From positions 21,209-85,208 of the forward strand of contig JALAGS010000080.1 in NCBI GenBank assembly GCA_022712315.1: a DNA stretch of 64,000 nt, given 5' to 3'. This document shows positions 2,856-36,668 of the stretch, one piece after another. Each line of letters starts with the position of its first letter. Within the stretch, counting starts at the first letter, position 1. The DNA comes from Sphingobacterium sp. (GTDB lineage: Bacteria > Bacteroidota > Bacteroidia > Sphingobacteriales > Sphingobacteriaceae). The position numbers were made by a program, and so were the translations under genes. Below the pieces are notes generated by a model that was not told the DNA's origin, ran no database searches, and saw nothing but the letters and a program-made list of their open reading frames with translations.

Positions 2856-4982
2856 ATGTTTAGGAAACTCATATTTGCACTTTTTGTTGTATCCATTGTT
2901 TCTTGTGGTTCAAAACCACGCGTAGCGCTGCCTGAAGATGGAGGACTTAAACCAAGTACACAACATCAGATCATCGCGAAAGAAGTCTCTGGATTATTGG
3001 AAAATGCGAGCTACAAAAAGGTCAAAATGAATGATTCGATATCGGGCATCATATACGATAATCTAATCAAAAGTCTGGATCAGGGAAAAAATTACTTGCT
3101 TCAATCGGATATTGATGAATTTCAAGCGTACAGAAACAATCTTGCACAGGATATCAAAAATGGCGATCTTTCTGCGGCATTCCATATTTTCAATGTCTAT
3201 TCGAAGAGATACCTGGACAGAATGCAATATGCGCTTTCAGAAATCGACAAGAAACAGGACTATACAAAGGATGAGTATTACCAACCTAACCGTGAAAAAC
3301 TAGGCTGGTTCAAAACGGCAGATGAGGCCAACGACCAATGGCGCAAACGCGTAAAATACGATCTGCTCAACTTAGAAACCGCGAGTGGCAAGTCTACCGA
3401 CAGTGCGAAGACCAAACAGGTGGAAACACTAAAGAAACGCTATGTCAATTTGATCTCACAGGCAAAGAAAACAAATGCAAACGATGCTTTTCAGGTAGTG
3501 ATGCAAGCATTGACAGATGCTGTTGACCCGCATACATCTTATTTTAATCCATCCTTTGCACAGGCATTCAATGAAGGAATGGCCAATACCTTTGAAGGAA
3601 TCGGGGCAAGACTTGTCGTCGATAACGAGGCCGTAAGCATCTTCGAAATTATCCCGGGCGGACCAATATTCAAAGACAAGAGCATTCATGTCAACGATAA
3701 GATCATTGCAGTTGCCCAAGGAAAAGATGGTGAATTTGAAGACATTATTGGCTGGAGACTCGATGCTGCTGTAGCAAAAATCAAAGGGCCAAAAGGAACA
3801 ATTGTTCGCCTAAAAATTATACCTGCGGGTCAGCCAATGAACTCTCATCCTCGCATTGTCTCTTTAGTACGTGAGAAAATCGTCGTTGAAGAAGAGTCTG
3901 CGAAGAAAGAGATCATGAACGTGAAAGGTGCAGACGGAAAAATGTATAAGGTAGGTATCATCAACATTCCTAAATTCTACATGGATTTTGACGCTTACAG
4001 AAGACGCGATCCAAACTATAAGAGCACAACGCGAGACGTCAGGTTAATCCTAGACACCTTGAAGCAAGAAAAAGTTGATGCTGTGGTCATCGATCTACGC
4101 TTCAATGGCGGCGGATCATTACCTGAGGCAATTGATTTAACAGGTCTATTTATTGACAGAGGTCCAGTTGTACAAGTAAAGGATACAAAAAATAATATCG
4201 ATGTCGAAGAAGATAAAAACGCGGGTGTATCTTGGGATGGTCCATTGGGCATCATGATCAACCGCTTCTCGGCTTCGGCTTCTGAAATCTTTGCCGGTGC
4301 TATTCAGGATTATGGAAGAGGTATTATCTTAGGCTCTCAAAGTTATGGTAAAGGGACAGTGCAATCGGCAATCGATATGTCACGTGTTATCAGTCCGACC
4401 AGCCGCCTGCTGTTAAAAGCCTCAGGAGAAAAAGATCCGGACACCCCAGAAGGTGCTCCTCAATATGGGCAGATCAATATCACGCTGGGCAAATTCTATC
4501 GTGTAAACGGTAGTAGTACACAACATAAGGGGGTTACACCTGACATCGTATTCCCGTCTCAATTCTCCGCAGAAAAATTCGGCGAGAGCTCAGAAAAATC
4601 AGCACTCCCTTGGGATCAAATCCAATCGAGCAACTTCAAAAAAGTAGCTGATCTAAGTGCTGTTGACAAAAAGTTAGAAGCAATGCATGAGGCACGCATT
4701 AAAAACTCATTGGAATATAAGTATCTGAAAGAGGATATTGAAGAAGCTCAAAAAGATGAGGATGTTAAAATTCCATTGGAGCTGAACAAGTTCAAGAAAG
4801 AGAAAGATGACAACCTCAAGAAAAACAGAGACCGCATCAACGCTTTATTGAAATTACAGGGCAAACCGGCTTGGGAAGAAGGAAAATCCCAACCTAAAAT
4901 TGACCTGGATTTTGTGAAAGACGAAAGTGCCAAGGTGATGACTGACTATATCATCAACTTTGGAACTAAAAAACCGTTATAA
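2856..4982 (+). CDS. prc: Carboxy-terminal processing (tail-specific) protease, S41A family, predicted lipoprotein
   Basis: PDZ (FEGIGA), DLRFNGGGSL, catalytic SASASEIFAG and GKGTVQ motifs; start moved from 2769 to ATG 2856, which gives signal MFRKLIFALFVVSIVSC. Confidence 0.93.
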   Translation: MFRKLIFALFVVSIVSCGSKPRVALPEDGGLKPSTQHQIIAKEVSGLLENASYKKVKMNDSISGIIYDNLIKSLDQGKNYLLQSDIDEFQAYRNNLAQDIKNGDLSAAFHIFNVYSKRYLDRMQYALSEIDKKQDYTKDEYYQPNREKLGWFKTADEANDQWRKRVKYDLLNLETASGKSTDSAKTKQVETLKKRYVNLISQAKKTNANDAFQVVMQALTDAVDPHTSYFNPSFAQAFNEGMANTFEGIGARLVVDNEAVSIFEIIPGGPIFKDKSIHVNDKIIAVAQGKDGEFEDIIGWRLDAAVAKIKGPKGTIVRLKIIPAGQPMNSHPRIVSLVREKIVVEEESAKKEIMNVKGADGKMYKVGIINIPKFYMDFDAYRRRDPNYKSTTRDVRLILDTLKQEKVDAVVIDLRFNGGGSLPEAIDLTGLFIDRGPVVQVKDTKNNIDVEEDKNAGVSWDGPLGIMINRFSASASEIFAGAIQDYGRGIILGSQSYGKGTVQSAIDMSRVISPTSRLLLKASGEKDPDTPEGAPQYGQINITLGKFYRVNGSSTQHKGVTPDIVFPSQFSAEKFGESSEKSALPWDQIQSSNFKKVADLSAVDKKLEAMHEARIKNSLEYKYLKEDIEEAQKDEDVKIPLELNKFKKEKDDNLKKNRDRINALLKLQGKPAWEEGKSQPKIDLDFVKDESAKVMTDYIINFGTKKPL

Positions 4983-5016
4983 TTTCATGAGTAGCAGAAG
5001 TGATCATTAAGCTAAG

Positions 5017-5047
5017 AAAAGGCAACCGTCATGACGGTTGCCTTTTT
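5017..5047. terminator. Intrinsic terminator after prc
   Basis: GGCAACCGTC/GACGGTTGCC stem flanked by A- and T-runs. Confidence 0.85.
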
Positions 5048-5233
5048 CTATGATTCTCATCACAATGGAAGGGGTTTAACGTTAAATTCACGTTTTCTTT
5101 GTAACTTATCACTACATTAATTGTTTTAATCATATACTCCATTGCGCGAGATCTCCATTGTTCATGTAGATCATATTCATTTTGGACAACAGCGCAGCAG
5201 GTACTAGAAATTAAACATATAAAAAAGAACATC

Positions 5234-6064
5234 ATGAAACGTATTCTCCTGTTAACCGACTTTTCAGACAATGCTCTTCTTGCAGCAAAACAAGTTGCTC
5301 TTTGTACAGAGGCCTGGAAGACTGAAAAAGTTATTGTCTACCATACTTACAATAGCGTTACCATTGTCAATAACGAGCCGATTGTTATTGTCAATGATGA
5401 GGTCAAAGAGACCAAAGAGAAGGAATTGACTCAGTGGTTTGACCAAATTAGATTGTTGTTTCCACCACAAGTGGAACTATCCCATCAGATGGAAGATATT
5501 GATTTACCCATGGGAGTCAGTGACATGTGCAAATCGCACAATATTGACCTTGTCGCACTGGGTATTACAGGACAAACAGGCTTTGCGAAGATCCTGGTAG
5601 GAAGTAATGCCATTACATTGATGGATATCTGCAATAAGCCGATGCTTATTGTTTCGCACAAGGTTAATCCTGCTGTTCCCAAAAATGTATTGGCGACAAC
5701 CGATCTGAAAGAGGTGGACCGAAAATTGGATTTATTCAACCTGGATCAGGTTTTGGATACCTTCCATGCGCAATTGTATGTTTTGAACGTCGCTAAAAAA
5801 GAAGGTTCGGCTGCAGACCTGGCACAGGAACTAAAGCATCTGCACGAGCGCTTAGACAAATATCATCCTATTTACGACTATATCAGCCATGATGATATTA
5901 CAGAAGGTATAGCCGAATATGCCAAAGAGAAACATATCGATCTCATCCTTTCCTTCCATAAAAAGCAAGGACTACTGGCGAGTCTATTTAAAGCCAGCAT
6001 ATCGAAAAAAATAGCCTGGAATGGTGCCGCGAACTTGCTTGTCATCCCCATGGAGAGGTCATAG
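5234..6064 (+). CDS. Universal stress protein (tandem UspA domains)
   Basis: MKRILLLTDFSDNA N-terminus; DLVALGITG...GSNA motif. Confidence 0.9.
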   Translation: MKRILLLTDFSDNALLAAKQVALCTEAWKTEKVIVYHTYNSVTIVNNEPIVIVNDEVKETKEKELTQWFDQIRLLFPPQVELSHQMEDIDLPMGVSDMCKSHNIDLVALGITGQTGFAKILVGSNAITLMDICNKPMLIVSHKVNPAVPKNVLATTDLKEVDRKLDLFNLDQVLDTFHAQLYVLNVAKKEGSAADLAQELKHLHERLDKYHPIYDYISHDDITEGIAEYAKEKHIDLILSFHKKQGLLASLFKASISKKIAWNGAANLLVIPMERS

Positions 6065-6746: not shown

Positions 6747-7577
6747 ATGAAAAACCTACTCTTGCTAACAGACTTTTCGGACAACGCCTACGCTGCAGCT
6801 CGATATGCTGCACAATTAGCTCCACTCTGGGGTATTGAGAAGGTTGTCCTATACCATACCTATGAAGTAATTCCTACTGTGGGCACTGAACCTGTTGTCA
6901 TCAGCAACTCAGAAATACTGGAAGAAAAGCAAAAAGATCTGAATACCTGGCAGCAGGAGCTGATGTTGCTTTTCCCCGAGGGCATCGCTTGGAAATCAGT
7001 ACTCGAAGAATATGAGTTGAGCTACGGCGTAAACCGCACCTGTGCGGAAGAAGACATTGACCTTGTGATCGTCGGCACTGCAGGTAAAAGCGGCATCAAG
7101 AAACTGCTTCTTGGCAGCAATACCCTCAAGCTGATCGAAAATTGTCACACCCCCTTACTGGTGGTCCCTGCCCGGGCAGCGTTCAGAGTACCCAAAAAGA
7201 TGTTGATCGCTACCAATCTCAAGGAAATAAAACTAAAATTAAACCGCCTTTTGGTTAATGCATCCGAAGTATTGCGCAAAAGTGAGGTCTATGTCGTCCA
7301 TGTGACCAAGGAAGATCCTACAAATAAAGCGGTAGAAGCCGAGATAACCATTATGCAGGATCTACTGGCCCCCTATCATCCCTTGTATAGCTATATACTC
7401 AATGCAGACATTGCATCGGGGATCAACCAATACATCAAGGAAAATCATATCGACATGATGGTCACTTTTCACCGCGACAAGGGCTTATTAAGTCGGATAT
7501 TCAATACGAGTATAGCACAAAAGATGGCCTGGAAGAGCCAGGCTGCCATGATGGTCATTCCGGTACACTCAGGTTAA
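6747..7577 (+). CDS. Universal stress protein (paralog of 5234..6064)
   Basis: MKNLLLLTDFSDNA; DLVIVGTAG...LLGSNT; same length (276 aa) as the first copy. Confidence 0.9.
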   Translation: MKNLLLLTDFSDNAYAAARYAAQLAPLWGIEKVVLYHTYEVIPTVGTEPVVISNSEILEEKQKDLNTWQQELMLLFPEGIAWKSVLEEYELSYGVNRTCAEEDIDLVIVGTAGKSGIKKLLLGSNTLKLIENCHTPLLVVPARAAFRVPKKMLIATNLKEIKLKLNRLLVNASEVLRKSEVYVVHVTKEDPTNKAVEAEITIMQDLLAPYHPLYSYILNADIASGINQYIKENHIDMMVTFHRDKGLLSRIFNTSIAQKMAWKSQAAMMVIPVHSG

Positions 7578-7616
7578 TCAAGATATATAATTGGGCAGAA
7601 TTCTGTTCAGCGCCTC

Positions 7617-8519
7617 TTACAAATAAGTTAACTGAACAGAATTCTCTGTAGTTTTCAGCGCGACCTTTCGCCCCAATACAAGAGCATGATTGTCATCAAT
7701 ATGCCCTGCAGGGTAAGCAAATGCTACAGGGAAATCGTACTCTTTGACTTTATCCCAGACGATTTCCTCTACACTTTGCCCAAAAGTTGGATCGTTGTCT
7801 TTCATGGCAGAGAAGCCACCGACAATCAGACCATTTAATTTTTTGAGTTTTCCAGCACGTTTCAATGCCCAAAGCATTCTGTCTATGGAATAATAAGCTT
7901 CACCGACATCTTCAATAAATAATATTTTATTCTTGTAATTGACATCCGAATCGGATGCAAGCACAGACAGTAAGATCGCCAGATTTCCGCCCACCAGTTT
8001 TCCTTCTCCCTCGCCTGCACGATTGGGAAATAAGGTTTGCTCGTAGGCAAAGTCCATAGGATGACCGAACAATGCATTTTGTAAGGTTTCTAAAGATGCT
8101 TTGGTCCCGGTTTCGAAAGACTTGGGCATCTGTCCATGTATGGTCGCAACTTTAAAATTGCGCTGGATATGGCTATGCAAGACGGTAATATCGCTAAATC
8201 CAACCAGCCATTTGGGATGACGCTCAAAATTTGAAAAATCAATTTCATCAACAATACGAACACAACCGTAACCTCCGCGCGCGGCAAAAACCGCTTTAAT
8301 CGACGGATCGTCCAGCGCCCATTGCAGGTCAGCCGCGCGTAAATCATCATCTCCGGCAAATTGATGGAACGATGTCTCGACTGTCTTCCCCACCACAACC
8401 TCCAAGCCCCAGCTTTCCAATGTTTTTATACCTATATCAATGGAGCCGCGGATAAAACTTGCAGGACAAACGATAGCGACTTTATCGCCTTTTTTCAGAA
8501 AATCAGGTATTTTGGACAT
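7617..8519 (-). CDS. LD-carboxypeptidase, peptidase S66 (LdcA/MccF family)
   Basis: ARGGYG, GFSDIT (catalytic Ser), GGNL, LFIEDV, GH motifs. Confidence 0.92.
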   Translation of the reverse strand: MSKIPDFLKKGDKVAIVCPASFIRGSIDIGIKTLESWGLEVVVGKTVETSFHQFAGDDDLRAADLQWALDDPSIKAVFAARGGYGCVRIVDEIDFSNFERHPKWLVGFSDITVLHSHIQRNFKVATIHGQMPKSFETGTKASLETLQNALFGHPMDFAYEQTLFPNRAGEGEGKLVGGNLAILLSVLASDSDVNYKNKILFIEDVGEAYYSIDRMLWALKRAGKLKKLNGLIVGGFSAMKDNDPTFGQSVEEIVWDKVKEYDFPVAFAYPAGHIDDNHALVLGRKVALKTTENSVQLTYL

Positions 8520-26785: not shown

Positions 26786-26977
26786 TTCGGGACAGCTTCG
26801 TCCTTTGCTCGCCTTTTGTTCGCCCCTGCTTCGGAAATTCTCTTATGTTTCTCTACAGATTCCCTACTGATGGCCTAACTGCCGGTAGAGAATCTGTAGA
26901 GAAAAGGTAGAAAATGGGTAGAGAATTTCCGAACAAGCTCCGAAGAAGGTCCGAACGGGTTACGAAGAACATACGAA
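26786..26977. repeat. Large imperfect inverted repeat with 11-bp periodic TTCG/CGAA and CTAC/GTAG cores
   Basis: TTCG-like at 26786, 26797, 26808 (CTCG), 26819, 26830; CGAA at 26930, 26941, 26952, 26963, 26974; GTAG at 26885, 26896, 26907, 26918; perfect 13-bp IR 26830-26842/26921-26933; inner 19-bp IR 26849-26867/26885-26903 with 1 mismatch. Confidence 0.9.
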
Positions 26978-26989
26978 GAGGCGTAAAGT

Positions 26990-27006
26990 TTGGCATCGGG
27001 TTTGCA
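26990..27006 (+). promoter_or_regulatory. Sigma54 (RpoN)-type -24/-12 promoter
   Basis: TTGGCATCGGGTTTGCA: GG (26992-93) and GC (27004-05) separated by exactly 10 nt. Confidence 0.65.
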
Positions 27007-31604: not shown

Positions 31605-32688
31605 ATGACAAAAGAACAAATTCAAGACTTGAGGGATCGTGTTACTTCCCTGAGGAGGCATCTTTGACATCGATGCACGCAAAGAAGAAATAGAAAGAGA
31701 CCAGGCCGTTACGCTTGAAGCAAGCTTTTGGGATGATTCCAAAGCTGCAGAGAAAATACTCTTGGCCATAAAAAACCAAAAGGTGTGGACAGACCACTTC
31801 GACGAAGTTGCAGCGGCGGTTGAAGACGCCTATGTGATGTATGAATTCTTTCAGTCTGGCGACGCCGACGAAAAGGAAGTGGACGACCAATATAAACTTG
31901 CTCTAGCTAAAGTCGAGGAGCTCGAATTCAAAAACATGCTTAGCGCTGAGGAAGATCAACTGGATGCGATCTTACAGATTACAGCCGGTGCCGGCGGCAC
32001 TGAAAGCTGTGACTGGGCAGCCATGCTGATGCGTATGTATATTATGTGGGGTGAGAAAAATGGGTACCGGGTAACCGAACAAGATTCACAGGAAGGTGAT
32101 GTGGCTGGTATCAAGAGCGTCACTTTACAGATATCCGGTGATTTTGCTTATGGCTACCTTAAGGGAGAGAATGGTGTACACAGGCTCGTTCGGATTTCTC
32201 CTTTCGATTCCAATGCAAAACGCCACACCTCTTTCGCTTCTGTCTACGTATATCCGTTGATCGATGATAATATAGAGATTGAAGTCAAGGATTCGGAAAT
32301 CGAATGGGATACGTTCCGCTCGGGCGGTGCCGGAGGCCAAAACGTGAATAAGGTAGAAACAGCCGTTCGTTTACACCACAAACCTACAGGCATTATTATT
32401 AAAAATCAGGAATCCAGATCGCAGTTACAAAATAAAGAAAATGCGATGCGCTTATTGAAATCCCAATTGTACGAGATCGAGATGCGTAAGCGTCAGGAAG
32501 CTACGGCCGCTATTGAAGGTAATAAAAAGAAAATTGAATGGGGATCCCAGATTCGAAATTACGTCCTGCATCCTTATAAGCTTATTAAAGATTTAAGGAC
32601 AAATTACGAAACCTCCAATACCCAAGCTGTATTGGATGGTGATTTAAATGATTTCCTTAAAAATTATCTAATGGAATTTGGCGGATAA
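31605..32688 (+). CDS. prfB: Peptide chain release factor 2, translated via programmed +1 frameshift at CTT-TGA-C (31662-31668)
   Basis: Frame 0 [20 protein letters not shown]-stop; +1 frame continues DIDARKEE... into ORF 31762..32688 with SPF and GGQ motifs. Confidence 0.96.
31653..31668 (+). promoter_or_regulatory. prfB frameshift cassette: internal SD AGGAGG, 3-nt spacer, CTT TGA C
   Basis: Direct read; matches the canonical RF2 autoregulatory site. Confidence 0.93.
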
Positions 32689-32716
32689 ATGAGATCCAGA
32701 AATCTTCATGATATCG

Positions 32717-32746
32717 AAGACGCTCTCTTTTGGGAGCGTCTTTTTT
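32717..32746 (+). terminator. Intrinsic terminator after prfB
   Basis: AAGACGCTCTC/GGGAGCGTCTT stem plus T-run. Confidence 0.85.
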
Positions 32747-33032
32747 CTTTCCTTATGCCTCAATTTCCTCGTCAGTTTAAACTCATTTTCCTCCACTGGC
32801 CTATTGGCCCCTTTCCTAAACAGTTTGTCACACAAACTGTCAATTTCTCTTAAGAATAAGGGCGCAAATGTTAAAAAATCTTAAAAGTCTATTGAATAGA
32901 TCGTTGATATATTTCAACCGATTTCAGCCGTAACAAAACAACAAACACCTGAAAAACAACATTTTAAATCACAACAATTTGTATCAAGAACGTTACAATT
33001 AAAGCGAACCGATCATTTTTGGCACAAAATAA

Positions 33033-33047
33033 AGGCATGTCTTTTGC
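33033..33047 (+). promoter_or_regulatory. Candidate sigma54-type promoter for GT2 operon
   Basis: AGGCATGTCTTTTGC: GG-N10-GC; first base deviates from consensus T. Confidence 0.4.
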
Positions 33048-33143
33048 GTTTATGGAATCGTAATATTTTCATTACAAATGATTCGATTCAACGATCGAAT
33101 TAAATATTGAATGAACGAAATGTATATCTAAAATAGAACGGTT

Positions 33144-34589
33144 ATGAATTACATGAAAGAAAACTCGATCGTATCCAAGCAGATGACCAAACAATGGCAG
33201 CCTGCTGTATACGATGTAAATGCAGCGGAAAAGCGATCTGAGAATACAGTGAGCAAAAAGGAAGAAAGCAACTTTGGTCCGAAGGAATACGTTATTTTTG
33301 GGGCAACATTTTTTATCTTATTTGCGTCAGTTTTTGGCGTATATATGCTTCAGCCCGATTTTGATGCTTTACGTTTCCAACGTCTGGATAGTATCGGCGG
33401 AACATTCTTAATTGTCTTGGGTATATTATTAGCGGTTATCGCGATCAGCTTTTTGATTTTTTTGATTGTACTGCATCGTAAATATAAGCCCATCGCTTCT
33501 GTATCGGACAATGAGCTACCAACTTGTACGATTATTGTTCCGGCTTATAATGAAGGACAGTTAGTCTATGATACCTTACATAGTTTGGCTAGCAGCGATT
33601 ATCCGGAGAAGAAACTTCAGATTATTGCGATTGACGACGGAAGTAAGGATAACACTTTTGCCTGGATACAACGTGCCAAAATGGAATTGGGCGACCGTGT
33701 GGAAATTTATCAGCAGCCCAAAAATATGGGTAAAAGACATGCCCTATACCGTGGATTTAAGTTAGGTACTGGAGAGATCTTTATCACGGTTGATAGTGAT
33801 TCAATTGTTAAAAAAGATACCATACGCAATATGGCCAGTCCTTTTGTGACAAACAAGGAATGTGGAGCAGTAGCAGGTAACGTGCGTGTATTGAATACTA
33901 AAAAGGCGATTATACCGCGGATGTTGAATGTCAGCTTTGTATTTAGTTTTGAATTTGTACGTTCAGCTCAAAGTATGTTGGGTACTGTCATGTGTACTCC
34001 GGGAGCTTTATCGGGTTACCGTAAAGAGGCTGTCATGAACTGTTTAGAGGATTGGATCAATCAGACATTTATGGGACAGCCGTCTGACATCGGTGAAGAT
34101 CGTGCGATGACGAATATGATCTTAAAACAAGGTTATCATGTGTTATTTCAATCCAATGCATATGTGTATACCGACACACCGGTACGTTATAAAAACCTGT
34201 ACAAGATGTTTATCCGTTGGGAACGAAGCAATGTGCGTGAAAACATCGCGATGAGTCAATTTGCTTTTAAGAATTTCCGTCAAGGGCCTAAATGGGGAGC
34301 ACGTATCTTATTGCTCATGCAATGGAAAAAGGTATTGTTAGCGTATCCAATGATGCTATTGATGCTGTGGACTGTATTTCATTATCCATTGATGTTCTTA
34401 AGTTCTACTTTGGTAGGTATCTTAATATTCTCAAGCATTCAGGCTTATTTCTTTGCCTCCAAAAACTCAGACGCCAAAGAAGCATTCTGGGCATATAGCT
34501 ACAGCATATTCTACGCCTTCAGTTTATTCTGGATTACCCCATATGCCATAGCAACAGCTGGACGCAGAGGTTGGTTGACAAGAGGTTAA
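33144..34589 (+). CDS. Processive GT2 glycosyltransferase, class-I hyaluronan synthase/NodC-like
   Basis: 2 N-terminal TMs; IVPAYNE, DDGS, GKRHAL, TVDSD, GEDRAMTN, FIRWERS (QxxRW-like); C-terminal TMs ending YAIATAGRRGWLTR. Confidence 0.8.
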   Translation: MNYMKENSIVSKQMTKQWQPAVYDVNAAEKRSENTVSKKEESNFGPKEYVIFGATFFILFASVFGVYMLQPDFDALRFQRLDSIGGTFLIVLGILLAVIAISFLIFLIVLHRKYKPIASVSDNELPTCTIIVPAYNEGQLVYDTLHSLASSDYPEKKLQIIAIDDGSKDNTFAWIQRAKMELGDRVEIYQQPKNMGKRHALYRGFKLGTGEIFITVDSDSIVKKDTIRNMASPFVTNKECGAVAGNVRVLNTKKAIIPRMLNVSFVFSFEFVRSAQSMLGTVMCTPGALSGYRKEAVMNCLEDWINQTFMGQPSDIGEDRAMTNMILKQGYHVLFQSNAYVYTDTPVRYKNLYKMFIRWERSNVRENIAMSQFAFKNFRQGPKWGARILLLMQWKKVLLAYPMMLLMLWTVFHYPLMFLSSTLVGILIFSSIQAYFFASKNSDAKEAFWAYSYSIFYAFSLFWITPYAIATAGRRGWLTRG

Positions 34590-34623
34590 ATTTAAAGCAA
34601 AGAACGTATATTTACAGCTATAT

Positions 34624-35925
34624 ATGAGAGATTTTCAGGTAAAAAAAATTGCCATCATTGGTCAAGGATATGTCGGGTTGCCATTAGCAATAGCGTTTTC
34701 CGACTATTTCCCCGTGATTGGATTTGATATTAATGAAACACGTATTGATGAACTTAGGCGCGGTGTTGACCGTACACTGGAAGCTGATAAAAAAGAACTG
34801 GAACTTGCAAGAGAGCTATTTACCACATCAAACCAAAGTAAGGGGTATAATGCAAGTAGTTCTACCGCAGACATTGCTGATGCAAACGTATATATAGTCA
34901 CCGTACCAACTCCTATTGATCGCTATAATTCACCCGATCTATCTCCATTGCTGGAGGCATCTAAAATGATTGGCGGATTATTAAATCCGGGCGATTTGGT
35001 TATTTATGAATCTACGGTCTATCCGGGCTGTACAGAAGAGGAATGTGTCCCGGTTTTGGAGAAGTTTTCGGGCTTAAAGTTTAATCAAGATTTTTTTGTC
35101 GGCTATTCTCCGGAACGAATTAATCCGGGGGATAAAGTAAATTCACTTCAAAAAGTAGTGAAGGTAACGTCTGGAAGTACTCCAGAGGCTGGATTAGCGG
35201 TAGATGGACTCTATAAAAAAATTATTGAGGCCGGCACGCACTTAGCACCATCGATCAAGGTAGCAGAAGCAGCAAAAGTTATCGAAAATGCACAACGCGA
35301 TGTGAATATTTCTTTTATGAATGAACTTGCACTGATCTTTGATCGTGTAGGTATAGACACGCAGGATGTCTTGGATGCCGCTGGAACAAAATACAACTTT
35401 TTACGTTTCAAGCCAGGTTTAGTCGGTGGGCACTGTATTTCTGTCGACCCTTATTATCTCGCTCAAAAAGCAACTCAACTAGGATATCACCCGCATGTTA
35501 TTTTATCTGGAAGAGAAGTGAATGATCAGATAGCCTCCTTCATTGCTTCAAAAGTCGTTAAACTGATGATTCAGAAAAATATCAGGTTTGAGGGAGCTAA
35601 AGCTTTGGTGCTGGGGATCACTTTTAAAGAAAATTGCCCTGATATCAGGAATAGTAAAGTCATTGACATGATCTATGACCTTCAAGAATTCGGACTGAAA
35701 GTAGATATTTATGATCCATGGGCAAATATAAATGAGGTGAAAAAGCATTTTAATCTGGACCTGTTATCAAATCTTCCTGAATCTGGAAATTATGATAGCG
35801 TTATACTTGCTGTCGGACACAGAGAGTTTTTACATTTAGATCTTAACAATCTTAAAAATAATCCTTCAGTTGTTTTTGATATCAAGGGTATACTCGACCG
35901 AAAATTGGTAGATGCCCGCTTATAA
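34624..35925 (+). CDS. Nucleotide-sugar dehydrogenase, TviB/WbpO/WecC-type (UDP-N-acetylhexosamine 6-dehydrogenase-like)
   Basis: GQGYVGLPLA, YSPERINPG, EAAKVIENAQRDVNI, PGLVGGHCISVDPYYL, LGITFKENCPDIRNSK. Confidence 0.9.
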   Translation: MRDFQVKKIAIIGQGYVGLPLAIAFSDYFPVIGFDINETRIDELRRGVDRTLEADKKELELARELFTTSNQSKGYNASSSTADIADANVYIVTVPTPIDRYNSPDLSPLLEASKMIGGLLNPGDLVIYESTVYPGCTEEECVPVLEKFSGLKFNQDFFVGYSPERINPGDKVNSLQKVVKVTSGSTPEAGLAVDGLYKKIIEAGTHLAPSIKVAEAAKVIENAQRDVNISFMNELALIFDRVGIDTQDVLDAAGTKYNFLRFKPGLVGGHCISVDPYYLAQKATQLGYHPHVILSGREVNDQIASFIASKVVKLMIQKNIRFEGAKALVLGITFKENCPDIRNSKVIDMIYDLQEFGLKVDIYDPWANINEVKKHFNLDLLSNLPESGNYDSVILAVGHREFLHLDLNNLKNNPSVVFDIKGILDRKLVDARL

Positions 35926-35950
35926 AGATCCGTTCTAATTATATTTTTTC

Positions 35951-35995
35951 AAATCCTGATCTGCTTAAATTCGTGACAAGTAGATCAGGATTTTT
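35951..35995 (+). terminator. Terminator closing the GT2-dehydrogenase operon
   Basis: AAATCCTGATCT/AGATCAGGATTT stem plus T-run. Confidence 0.8.
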
Positions 35996-36080
35996 ACGAT
36001 CTGGCATTTTATGCAATCGTTTGATTAAAAAAAACATTACTATATTTTTTGTTTTTAATACTAACTTAACACCACAATTA

Positions 36081-36088
36081 TAAATTTG
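36081..36088 (+). promoter_or_regulatory. -7 promoter element for ECF sigma gene
   Basis: TAAATTTG exact match. Confidence 0.55.
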
Positions 36089-36128
36089 GCCTAATTAAAC
36101 TAAGGGAGTTACACAAATTGCGGTAATT

Positions 36129-36668
36129 ATGGAACAGTTAGATGACACCGAACTATTCGCTGGGATTCAAGCAAATGACCGTCATGCTTTTTCGGAATTA
36201 GTCAATCGCTATTCGGCTATACTTTTTCGATTTATACAGCGTCGTGTTTCCTGTGTCGAAGACAGTGAAGACATCCTGCAGGAAGTATTTGTGTCCCTCT
36301 GGAACAACAGGCACAAGATCAACATCGAATACTCCCTTTATCCGTATCTTTTTAAAACAGCCAAGTACAAAATAATCGACTGGACCATACAAGAGCAGCG
36401 GAAGGTTGCCCGTGCTGAAGCCCTCTTACAGACCTACCAAACCCAGTCTACAACAACATCTGAAGAAGAACTCTTGGCAAAAGAGCTATCGGTACTTATC
36501 GAACAAGAAATAGACAAGATGCCTACCACAATGAAATCTGCATTCTCGCTCAGCCGAAAGGAATCCATGTCCATTAAAGATATTGCCACCGAGCTTGCAT
36601 TATCCGAACAAACCGTAAAAAATAATATCTCCCTGGCTCTGGGCTGGCTCAAGCTTCGATTTAAATAA
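36129..36668 (+). CDS. ECF sigma-70 factor (Bacteroidota PUL-associated)
   Basis: AFSELVNRY, EDILQEVFVSLW, AFSLSRKESMSIKDIA..LSEQTVKNNISLAL. Confidence 0.92.
   Translation: MEQLDDTELFAGIQANDRHAFSELVNRYSAILFRFIQRRVSCVEDSEDILQEVFVSLWNNRHKINIEYSLYPYLFKTAKYKIIDWTIQEQRKVARAEALLQTYQTQSTTTSEEELLAKELSVLIEQEIDKMPTTMKSAFSLSRKESMSIKDIATELALSEQTVKNNISLALGWLKLRFK

Follow-up and report, generated by a model that had tools for sequence, protein, structure and literature searches.

NodC, hyaluronan synthases (HAS), chitin synthases and PgaC all use UDP-N-acetylglucosamine (UDP-GlcNAc). The class-I HAS of streptococci and Bacillus (HasA), of Chlorella viruses and of vertebrates carry a single glycosyltransferase family 2 (GT2) domain between N-terminal and C-terminal transmembrane helices, and in hasA-hasB arrangements the gene for a nucleotide-sugar 6-dehydrogenase, the UDP-glucose 6-dehydrogenase HasB (Ugd), lies directly downstream of the synthase gene. 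A comparable gene pair is found on the forward strand of a 64,000-nucleotide stretch of a Sphingobacterium sp. genome (contig JALAGS010000080.1 of assembly GCA_022712315.1), hereafter the window. Its first gene (33144..34589) encodes a 481-residue GT2 membrane synthase (hereafter GT) and is followed, after a hairpin-free spacer of 34 bp (34590..34623), by the gene of a 433-residue TviB/WbpA/WbpO-type UDP-N-acetylhexosamine (UDP-HexNAc) 6-dehydrogenase (hereafter DH; 34624..35925) that is present in some related strains and absent from others. Both open reading frames and the gap between them lie where they had been placed in the original prediction, which was made from the DNA letters and had taken the pair for a hasAB-like operon. 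We see in the locus an orphan synthase of an uncharacterised HAS/NodC-like kind that gained a UDP-GlcNAc dehydrogenase on two occasions, and the analogy with has operons holds only in the sense of a lineage-specific, dispensable add-on.

The GT resembles class-I HAS in several motifs and in its predicted fold. It contains VDSDS (residues 216-220), GEDRAMTN (317-324), FIRW (356-359) and the C-terminal motif PYAIATAGRRGWLTRG (466-481), and it is matched by the Pfam models Glycos_transf_2, Glyco_tranf_2_3 and Chitin_synth_2. Its best matches by sequence among solved structures are class-I HAS, namely the Chlorella-virus enzyme (7sp7; E 1.6e-24, residues 192-481) and Xenopus HAS1, and a residue alignment with the viral enzyme keeps GKR, DSD, C.PGAL, QTF.G, GEDR..TN, RW..S and the C-terminal W.TRG in register. 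From the N-terminus onwards, an AlphaFold2 model built from a 30-sequence family alignment (predicted local distance difference test score, 77.6; predicted TM-score, 0.77) has two long transmembrane helices linked by a short helix, the GT-A domain, a long interface helix (349-374), three long transmembrane helices and a short one, which is the membrane architecture of HAS enzymes. When this model was compared to the PDB with Foldseek, the top 13 matches were all HAS (E down to 8.6e-22, TM-score 0.58-0.66); next in the ranking came an archaeal mannosyltransferase, BcsA and chitin synthases. The earlier assignment to the class-I HAS/NodC type of GT2 enzymes is thus borne out by motifs, Pfam matches and fold alike, and we place the synthase in the structural clade of class-I HAS, NodC and chitin synthases with high confidence. 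It differs from class-I HAS in that its identity to these enzymes is only 21-27% and that it has a Met in place of the Gln of QxxRW, and unlike the viral and vertebrate HAS, it ends at W.TRG and lacks their last two helices.

Pairwise alignments to NodC, HasA and PgaC from annotated plasmids, among which named HasA matches were found only on Bacillus anthracis/cereus plasmids, gave 27-28% identity to NodC (residues 116-481), 26.5% to Bacillus HasA (114-480) and 26% to PgaC, where the alignment ends at residue 414. NodC is of similar size and provides the best NCBIfam model for the GT (TIGR04242), yet the score of 154.9 bits is far below the cut-off of 550; the PgaC model (TIGR03937) reaches 139.7 bits at a cut-off of 422.3, and membership in either family is excluded by these scores. 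Because the GT falls below both cut-offs despite its HAS-like fold and alignments, we regard it as forming a branch of its own within the HAS/NodC/chitin-synthase clade. Unlike NodC, it has no nodA, nodB or nodIJ in the window region examined, and its host is not a rhizobium. With PgaC/IcaA it shares the GT2 core and not the C-terminal motif, and its neighbours include none of the pgaA/B/D or icaDBC partners.

At the Gln position of QxxRW, 30 of 30 family members have Met (KMF[I/T]RW), which may count against a polymerising enzyme and would, together with a weak match to the Pfam model Glyco_transf_21 (ceramide glucosyltransferase; E 1.5e-5), fit a non-processive GT that loads just one sugar onto a lipid or onto polyprenyl phosphate. 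The GT does have DSD, and GEDR, RW and the C-terminal W.TR are invariant across the family. Moreover, the top fold matches are all full-length processive synthases with channel-forming C-terminal helices, and the polyprenyl-phosphate loaders ArnC and DPMS match the GT only over the first ca. 100 residues of its GT-A domain (about 123-230). Transfer of a single sugar therefore appears highly improbable to us.

The second gene, too, sets the locus apart from hasA-hasB. The DH comprises all three UDPG_MGDP_dh domains in the architecture known from TviB, WbpA and WbpO and carries KPGLVGGHCISVDPYYL with the GGHC catalytic-Cys motif. Among NCBIfam models, TviB scores 509.8 bits, the WecC/UDP-ManNAc dehydrogenase models about 205 and Ugd 130-156; since the TviB score is below the equivalog cut-off of 592, the DH is a member of this family and not a proven TviB equivalog. 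As the original prediction had also held, it is very probably, judged by these profiles, a UDP-HexNAc 6-dehydrogenase and not a Ugd/HasB-type UDP-glucose 6-dehydrogenase. Relatives at 59-68% identity are found in capsule loci of Bacteroidota, and the nearest ones (66-68%) reside in classical loci of this kind, either in the order CapD-like protein, Wza, Wzc, DH, oxidoreductase and DegT aminotransferase or beside a Wzx-type flippase. Unlike the TviB, WbpA and WbpO enzymes of Wzx/Wzy-type or ABC-type capsule and O-antigen loci, the DH studied here is detached from any capsule locus and joined to a synthase-type GT. A second copy with 61% identity is encoded next to an epimerase elsewhere in the same genome, which also has a distant Ugd-like gene.

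The GT belongs to a large family whose members are almost always stand-alone genes with their own terminator. We found 4970 relatives at E <= 1e-10 among 8000 candidates scored, and a library of representatives clustered at 50% identity yielded 512 clusters at E <= 1e-30. The best 120 relatives share 61-97% identity and belong to Sphingobacterium, Elizabethkingia, Myroides, Aquimarina, Mesonia, Galbibacter, Fulvivirga, Chitinophagaceae and others. Identity within the family is 60-70% across Bacteroidota classes, and the family alignment has a mean column identity of 61% with invariant blocks IGEDRAMTNMILKQG, KMF(I/T)RWERSN and GWLTR. The distribution is patchy, with members in 13 of 401 evenly sampled Bacteroidota genomes and in none of the seven other Sphingobacteriaceae sampled. 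Across 80 loci with 6-kb flanks, in which Pfam was run on recurrent neighbour clusters, no neighbour is shared beyond genus-level synteny and no functional theme emerged; recurrent neighbours are PurL, acyl-CoA synthetase, S9 peptidases, domains of unknown function (DUFs), a LytTR regulator, cyclase-domain proteins, a TonB receptor and a sulfatase. Each DH-less locus examined has a stable hairpin no more than ca. 100 nt from the GT stop codon, mostly with a U-tail. Relatives at 44-47% identity in other lineages, including at least one other phylum (e.g., a Desulfovibrionales genome), are also solitary. No characterised member was found in the literature on Bacteroidota homologues or on sigma54-controlled NodC/HAS-like genes, and other bacterial chitin synthases, outside this family, are covered by PMC5122149.

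Some members of the family have peculiarities of their own. In one relative of 682 residues and 45% identity (L107:6001-8049), the synthase is extended at its C-terminus by an LptC-like periplasmic domain, which hints that the product of the family is handled in the periplasm. Four Aquimarina loci (L050, L052, L057 and L078; ca. 3300-5700) encode two tandem adenylate/guanylate-cyclase-domain proteins, which lie immediately before the GT and face the other way, and another locus (L041, 8306-9388) has one cyclase-domain gene downstream of it; these genes may be a lineage-specific regulatory partner.

The proposal of a conserved hasAB-like operon was not supported by the comparison of these loci. 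In Sphingobacterium, 15 of 26 loci have an intact adjoining DH on the same strand, where the aligned stretches of the two genes lie 38-43 bp apart, one has a DH fragment and ten have none; DH adjacency in this genus is confined to part of the Sphingobacterium multivorum group. Five of six Elizabethkingia loci have a DH as well, in divergent orientation and ca. 600-740 bp away, and none was found within 6 kb at the 48 loci from other genera or beside the GT in 12 other GT-bearing genomes of the phylum sample. The pairing is thus optional even within one species group, unlike in hasA-hasB.

Together with these absences (all 48 loci of other genera and 10 of 26 in Sphingobacterium), several further observations weigh against a synthase that depends on the DH or is adapted to its product. 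Synthases that are 97-99% identical occur both with and without an adjoining DH, so the GT has not altered its specificity along with it. Sphingobacterium multivorum NCTC 11343 (L013) is an example of a DH-bearing strain and Sphingobacterium sp. WOUb80 (L011) of a DH-less one. At four loci with GTs of such identity (L009, L011, L014 and L015), the sequence corresponding to window 34593-36009 is replaced by ca. 80 bp with a different terminator. This segment (ca. 7450-7530 of the respective loci) is homologous among the four and absent from DH-bearing alleles, and the two forms therefore look like cassettes swapped by recombination and not like independent deletions. In L028, from a Sphingobacterium metagenome-assembled genome, only DH residues 312-433 are left directly after the GT stop codon (7465-7830), and this remnant is the result of deletion and decay of the add-on. 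DH-less loci are also scattered among DH-bearing ones in a tree of the syntenic 4.9 kb. One genome (G091), 100% complete and with an intact GT of 64% identity, encodes no UDPG_MGDP_dh family member at all, and the synthase family must therefore be independent of a uronic-acid donor. The other GT-bearing genomes tested (47 of 47) have at least two UDP-sugar dehydrogenase genes each, as is the case for most Bacteroidia; because TviB-type DHs are nearly universal in this class (158 of 401 genomes at E <= 1e-100), co-occurrence at the level of genomes is uninformative.

An obligate hasAB-like operon, in which a dual-substrate GT makes a regular glycosaminoglycan-like heteropolymer containing N-acetylhexosaminuronic acid (HexNAcA), is improbable in this light. 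The HAS-like fold and motifs would suit it, as would a DH gene 34 bp downstream of the GT. Furthermore, GT residues K197 and R358 align with K177 and R341 of the Chlorella-virus HAS, which hold the carboxylate of glucuronic acid (PMC12987647). These two positions are, however, expected to be conserved in non-uronic synthases too and would thus not be diagnostic of a uronic substrate, while the lack of conserved pairing, the natural DH-less alleles with near-identical GT and the missing uronic-acid pathway in G091 all oppose such an operon. Of the HexNAcA-containing product that had been predicted, what stands is therefore its possibility in DH-bearing strains; as a property of the synthase family it is contradicted by G091 and the near-identical DH-less alleles.

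That the two genes are nonetheless linked in function is suggested by selection, gene arrangement and phylogeny. Both are under strong purifying selection, as shown by dN/dS ratios of ca. 0.02 (GT) and 0.03-0.04 (DH). The spacer has neither a promoter box nor a hairpin, so the DH seems expressible only along with the GT, and the unit ends in an intrinsic terminator (35951..35998, + strand) with a 16-bp stem, an 11-nt loop and a U-run. Folding of its stem-loop (35951-35993) gave a free energy of -23 kcal/mol with z = -4.27 against shuffled sequences, so the strong terminator noted originally was found again. Co-transcription of GT and DH is accordingly a quite probable reading of the sequence. 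In a tree of DHs, the GT-adjacent ones of Sphingobacterium form their own clade (support 100/99) and those of Elizabethkingia cluster (95/91) with DHs from the capsule loci of two further genomes. A DH must thus have been recruited beside the GT twice. The Elizabethkingia pair is retained while its outer flanks differ (TonB receptor, ChaN-like protein or sulfatase). With one to three DH genes among ca. 5000 per genome, chance adjacency in two of ca. 25 genera seems unlikely by this rough reckoning.

The GT tree adds that the synthases of Elizabethkingia, a member of the Flavobacteriales, nest within those of Sphingobacterium (100/100, 98/83) as sisters of the Sphingobacterium suaedae and Sphingobacterium allocomposti enzymes (98/83; seen with L033-L040 on the Elizabethkingia side versus L009-L038). 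This nesting indicates horizontal transfer of the GT between orders and places both DH recruitments in a single GT clade. A residue search returned six GT residues common only to the two DH-linked lineages. We rejected these as convergent, DH-linked changes, given that four DH-less Sphingobacterium species of the clade appear to have them, and the nesting identifies them as clade markers of shared ancestry.

The DH could also be a mere passenger that serves capsule or lipopolysaccharide synthesis, or nothing specific, and has come to lie at a tolerant site downstream of a monocistronic gene, with the GT making a neutral chitin-like or other beta-glycan everywhere. Such a history would account for a GT that stands alone in nearly all lineages and remains unchanged when the DH is lost, as often happens; it would also agree with the absence of any such DH in G091, the capsule-locus origin of the nearest DH relatives and the other DH paralogues that every DH-less relative examined has elsewhere in its genome. 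It is harder to reconcile with the strong purifying selection on a DH that lacks a promoter of its own, with a genome that already holds a capsule-type copy, and with the second, independent juxtaposition in Elizabethkingia, where the pair sits isolated between unrelated genes. We consider a passenger possible, though rather unlikely. The link between DH and GT is probably real but accessory, and the second recruitment and the selection on the DH make a HexNAcA-containing product possible for DH-bearing strains. That the GT uses the product of the DH is a tentative conclusion from comparative data, which we hold to be nearly, though not quite, as likely as its opposite.

The reading that we favour, with about even confidence, is that of an orphan synthase with a neutral GlcNAc-type core product and an optional, co-transcribed DH that possibly adds an acidic sugar. 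The GT would be an inner-membrane, single-domain beta-glycosyltransferase that polymerises a UDP-activated sugar, for which UDP-GlcNAc is the likeliest candidate since it is a substrate of all characterised near relatives. The resulting beta-linked oligo- or polysaccharide would pass through the transmembrane channel of the GT itself into the periplasm, with transcription probably starting at a sigma54-type promoter (see below). The Sphingobacterium lineage of the window would have gained a further copy of a capsule-type UDP-GlcNAc 6-dehydrogenase gene by insertion between the GT stop codon and the terminator. Most likely, the DH would raise the level of UDP-N-acetylglucosaminuronic acid (UDP-GlcNAcA) upon induction of the synthase, and the GT may incorporate this sugar to give a partly acidic product in DH-bearing strains. 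For the core product, a neutral oligo- or polysaccharide of the GlcNAc type is likely, and the DH would be an optional and repeatedly lost add-on instead of the defining partner of the synthase.

A bolder proposal joins these elements: in diderm bacteria, a family of stand-alone synthases induced through sigma54 would release a chitin-like glycan into the periplasm without an outer-membrane exporter, and the Sphingobacterium/Elizabethkingia GT would accept UDP-GlcNAcA from a dedicated DH to form a GlcNAc/GlcNAcA polymer. We see this as rather unlikely. If true, the polymer would be an "acidic chitin", or an analogue of hyaluronan that is N-acetylated on both sugars. To our knowledge, no GlcNAc/GlcNAcA polymer has been described from a synthase-dependent pathway, and a literature search on poly-GlcNAcA synthases found none. 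The locus is of wider interest since its GT represents a large and well-conserved family with HAS/chitin-synthase machinery that occurs as a lone gene in diderms. In addition, the DH-bearing and DH-less alleles of near-identical Sphingobacterium strains constitute a natural experiment on the use of UDP-HexNAc-uronic acid by HAS-type enzymes. If the GT takes this substrate, it would make a new acidic polysaccharide and open a new substrate class for such enzymes; if it does not, the locus would amount to an orphan synthase of an ordinary kind that carries a passenger.

The GT gene is preceded by a sigma54-type -24/-12 element, AGGCATGTCTTTTGC (33033..33047, + strand), with GG at 33034-35, GC at 33046-47 and the cores GGCA and TTGC, i.e., with GG-N10-GC spacing and TGGCAC/TTGC-like elements. 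Upstream of it, a TGT-N12-ACA palindrome, TGTATCAAnAACGTTACAA (32980..32997, + strand), may be where a sigma54 activator binds. Palindrome and box form a conserved block that is invariant in seven Sphingobacterium species with diverging flanks. The box occurs in the orthologous regions of all 22 S. multivorum-group loci, in most of them ca. 110 bp before the ATG, and is invariant but for one spacer base in 21 of these; the remaining one (L030) is divergent yet still matches. Weaker boxes are enriched before GTs of other genera (8 of 59 at 9 or more of 12 matches versus 3.7% of background windows), and similar ones precede distantly related synthase genes in other phyla, among them one that adjoins a sigma54 activator gene. 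No Bacteroidota -7 box (TAnnTTTG) was found on the + strand of the 455 bp before the GT (32689-33143), and the genome encodes rpoN and seven activators. Two points speak against such control: no sigma54 activator gene is adjacent to the locus, and matches to the bare box pattern are not statistically rare within the window, for which reason we rely on its conservation and not its occurrence. On balance, we lean slightly towards sigma54 control of the GT, which would place the transcription start near 33058. A second sigma54-like -24/-12 match in the window, TGGCATCGGGTTTGC (26991-27005), lies ca. 630 bp before a P-type ATPase gene (27635) and 14 bp after a symmetric element with 11-bp periodicity (26786-26977), which could be an activator-binding array for this candidate promoter.

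The immediate surroundings of the locus are genes for a P-type ATPase, PGI and release factor 2 (RF2) upstream of the GT and an ECF sigma/FecR/SusC/SusD/phosphoesterase locus downstream of the DH. No Wzx, Wzy or OPX genes are present among the neighbours (ca. 5.5 kb upstream and 10 kb downstream), and the only ABC-type gene nearby, 7 kb upstream on the opposite strand, encodes a MacB/FtsX-like permease. This agrees with the earlier statement that the locus contains no export genes. GT and DH form an isolated and apparently co-transcribed unit, and, unlike for hasA-hasB, the host is a diderm without an export partner for the synthase. An Rfam scan of 32600-36200 (E <= 1) returned no RNA family and thus no known riboswitch in the long GT leader. 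The RF2 gene prfB (31606-32688) has the classical programmed +1 frameshift, an ordinary feature of this gene, with its ATG at 31606, a Shine-Dalgarno-like AGGAGG at 31652-57 and CTT TGA C at 31661-67, after which the main frame runs to 32688.

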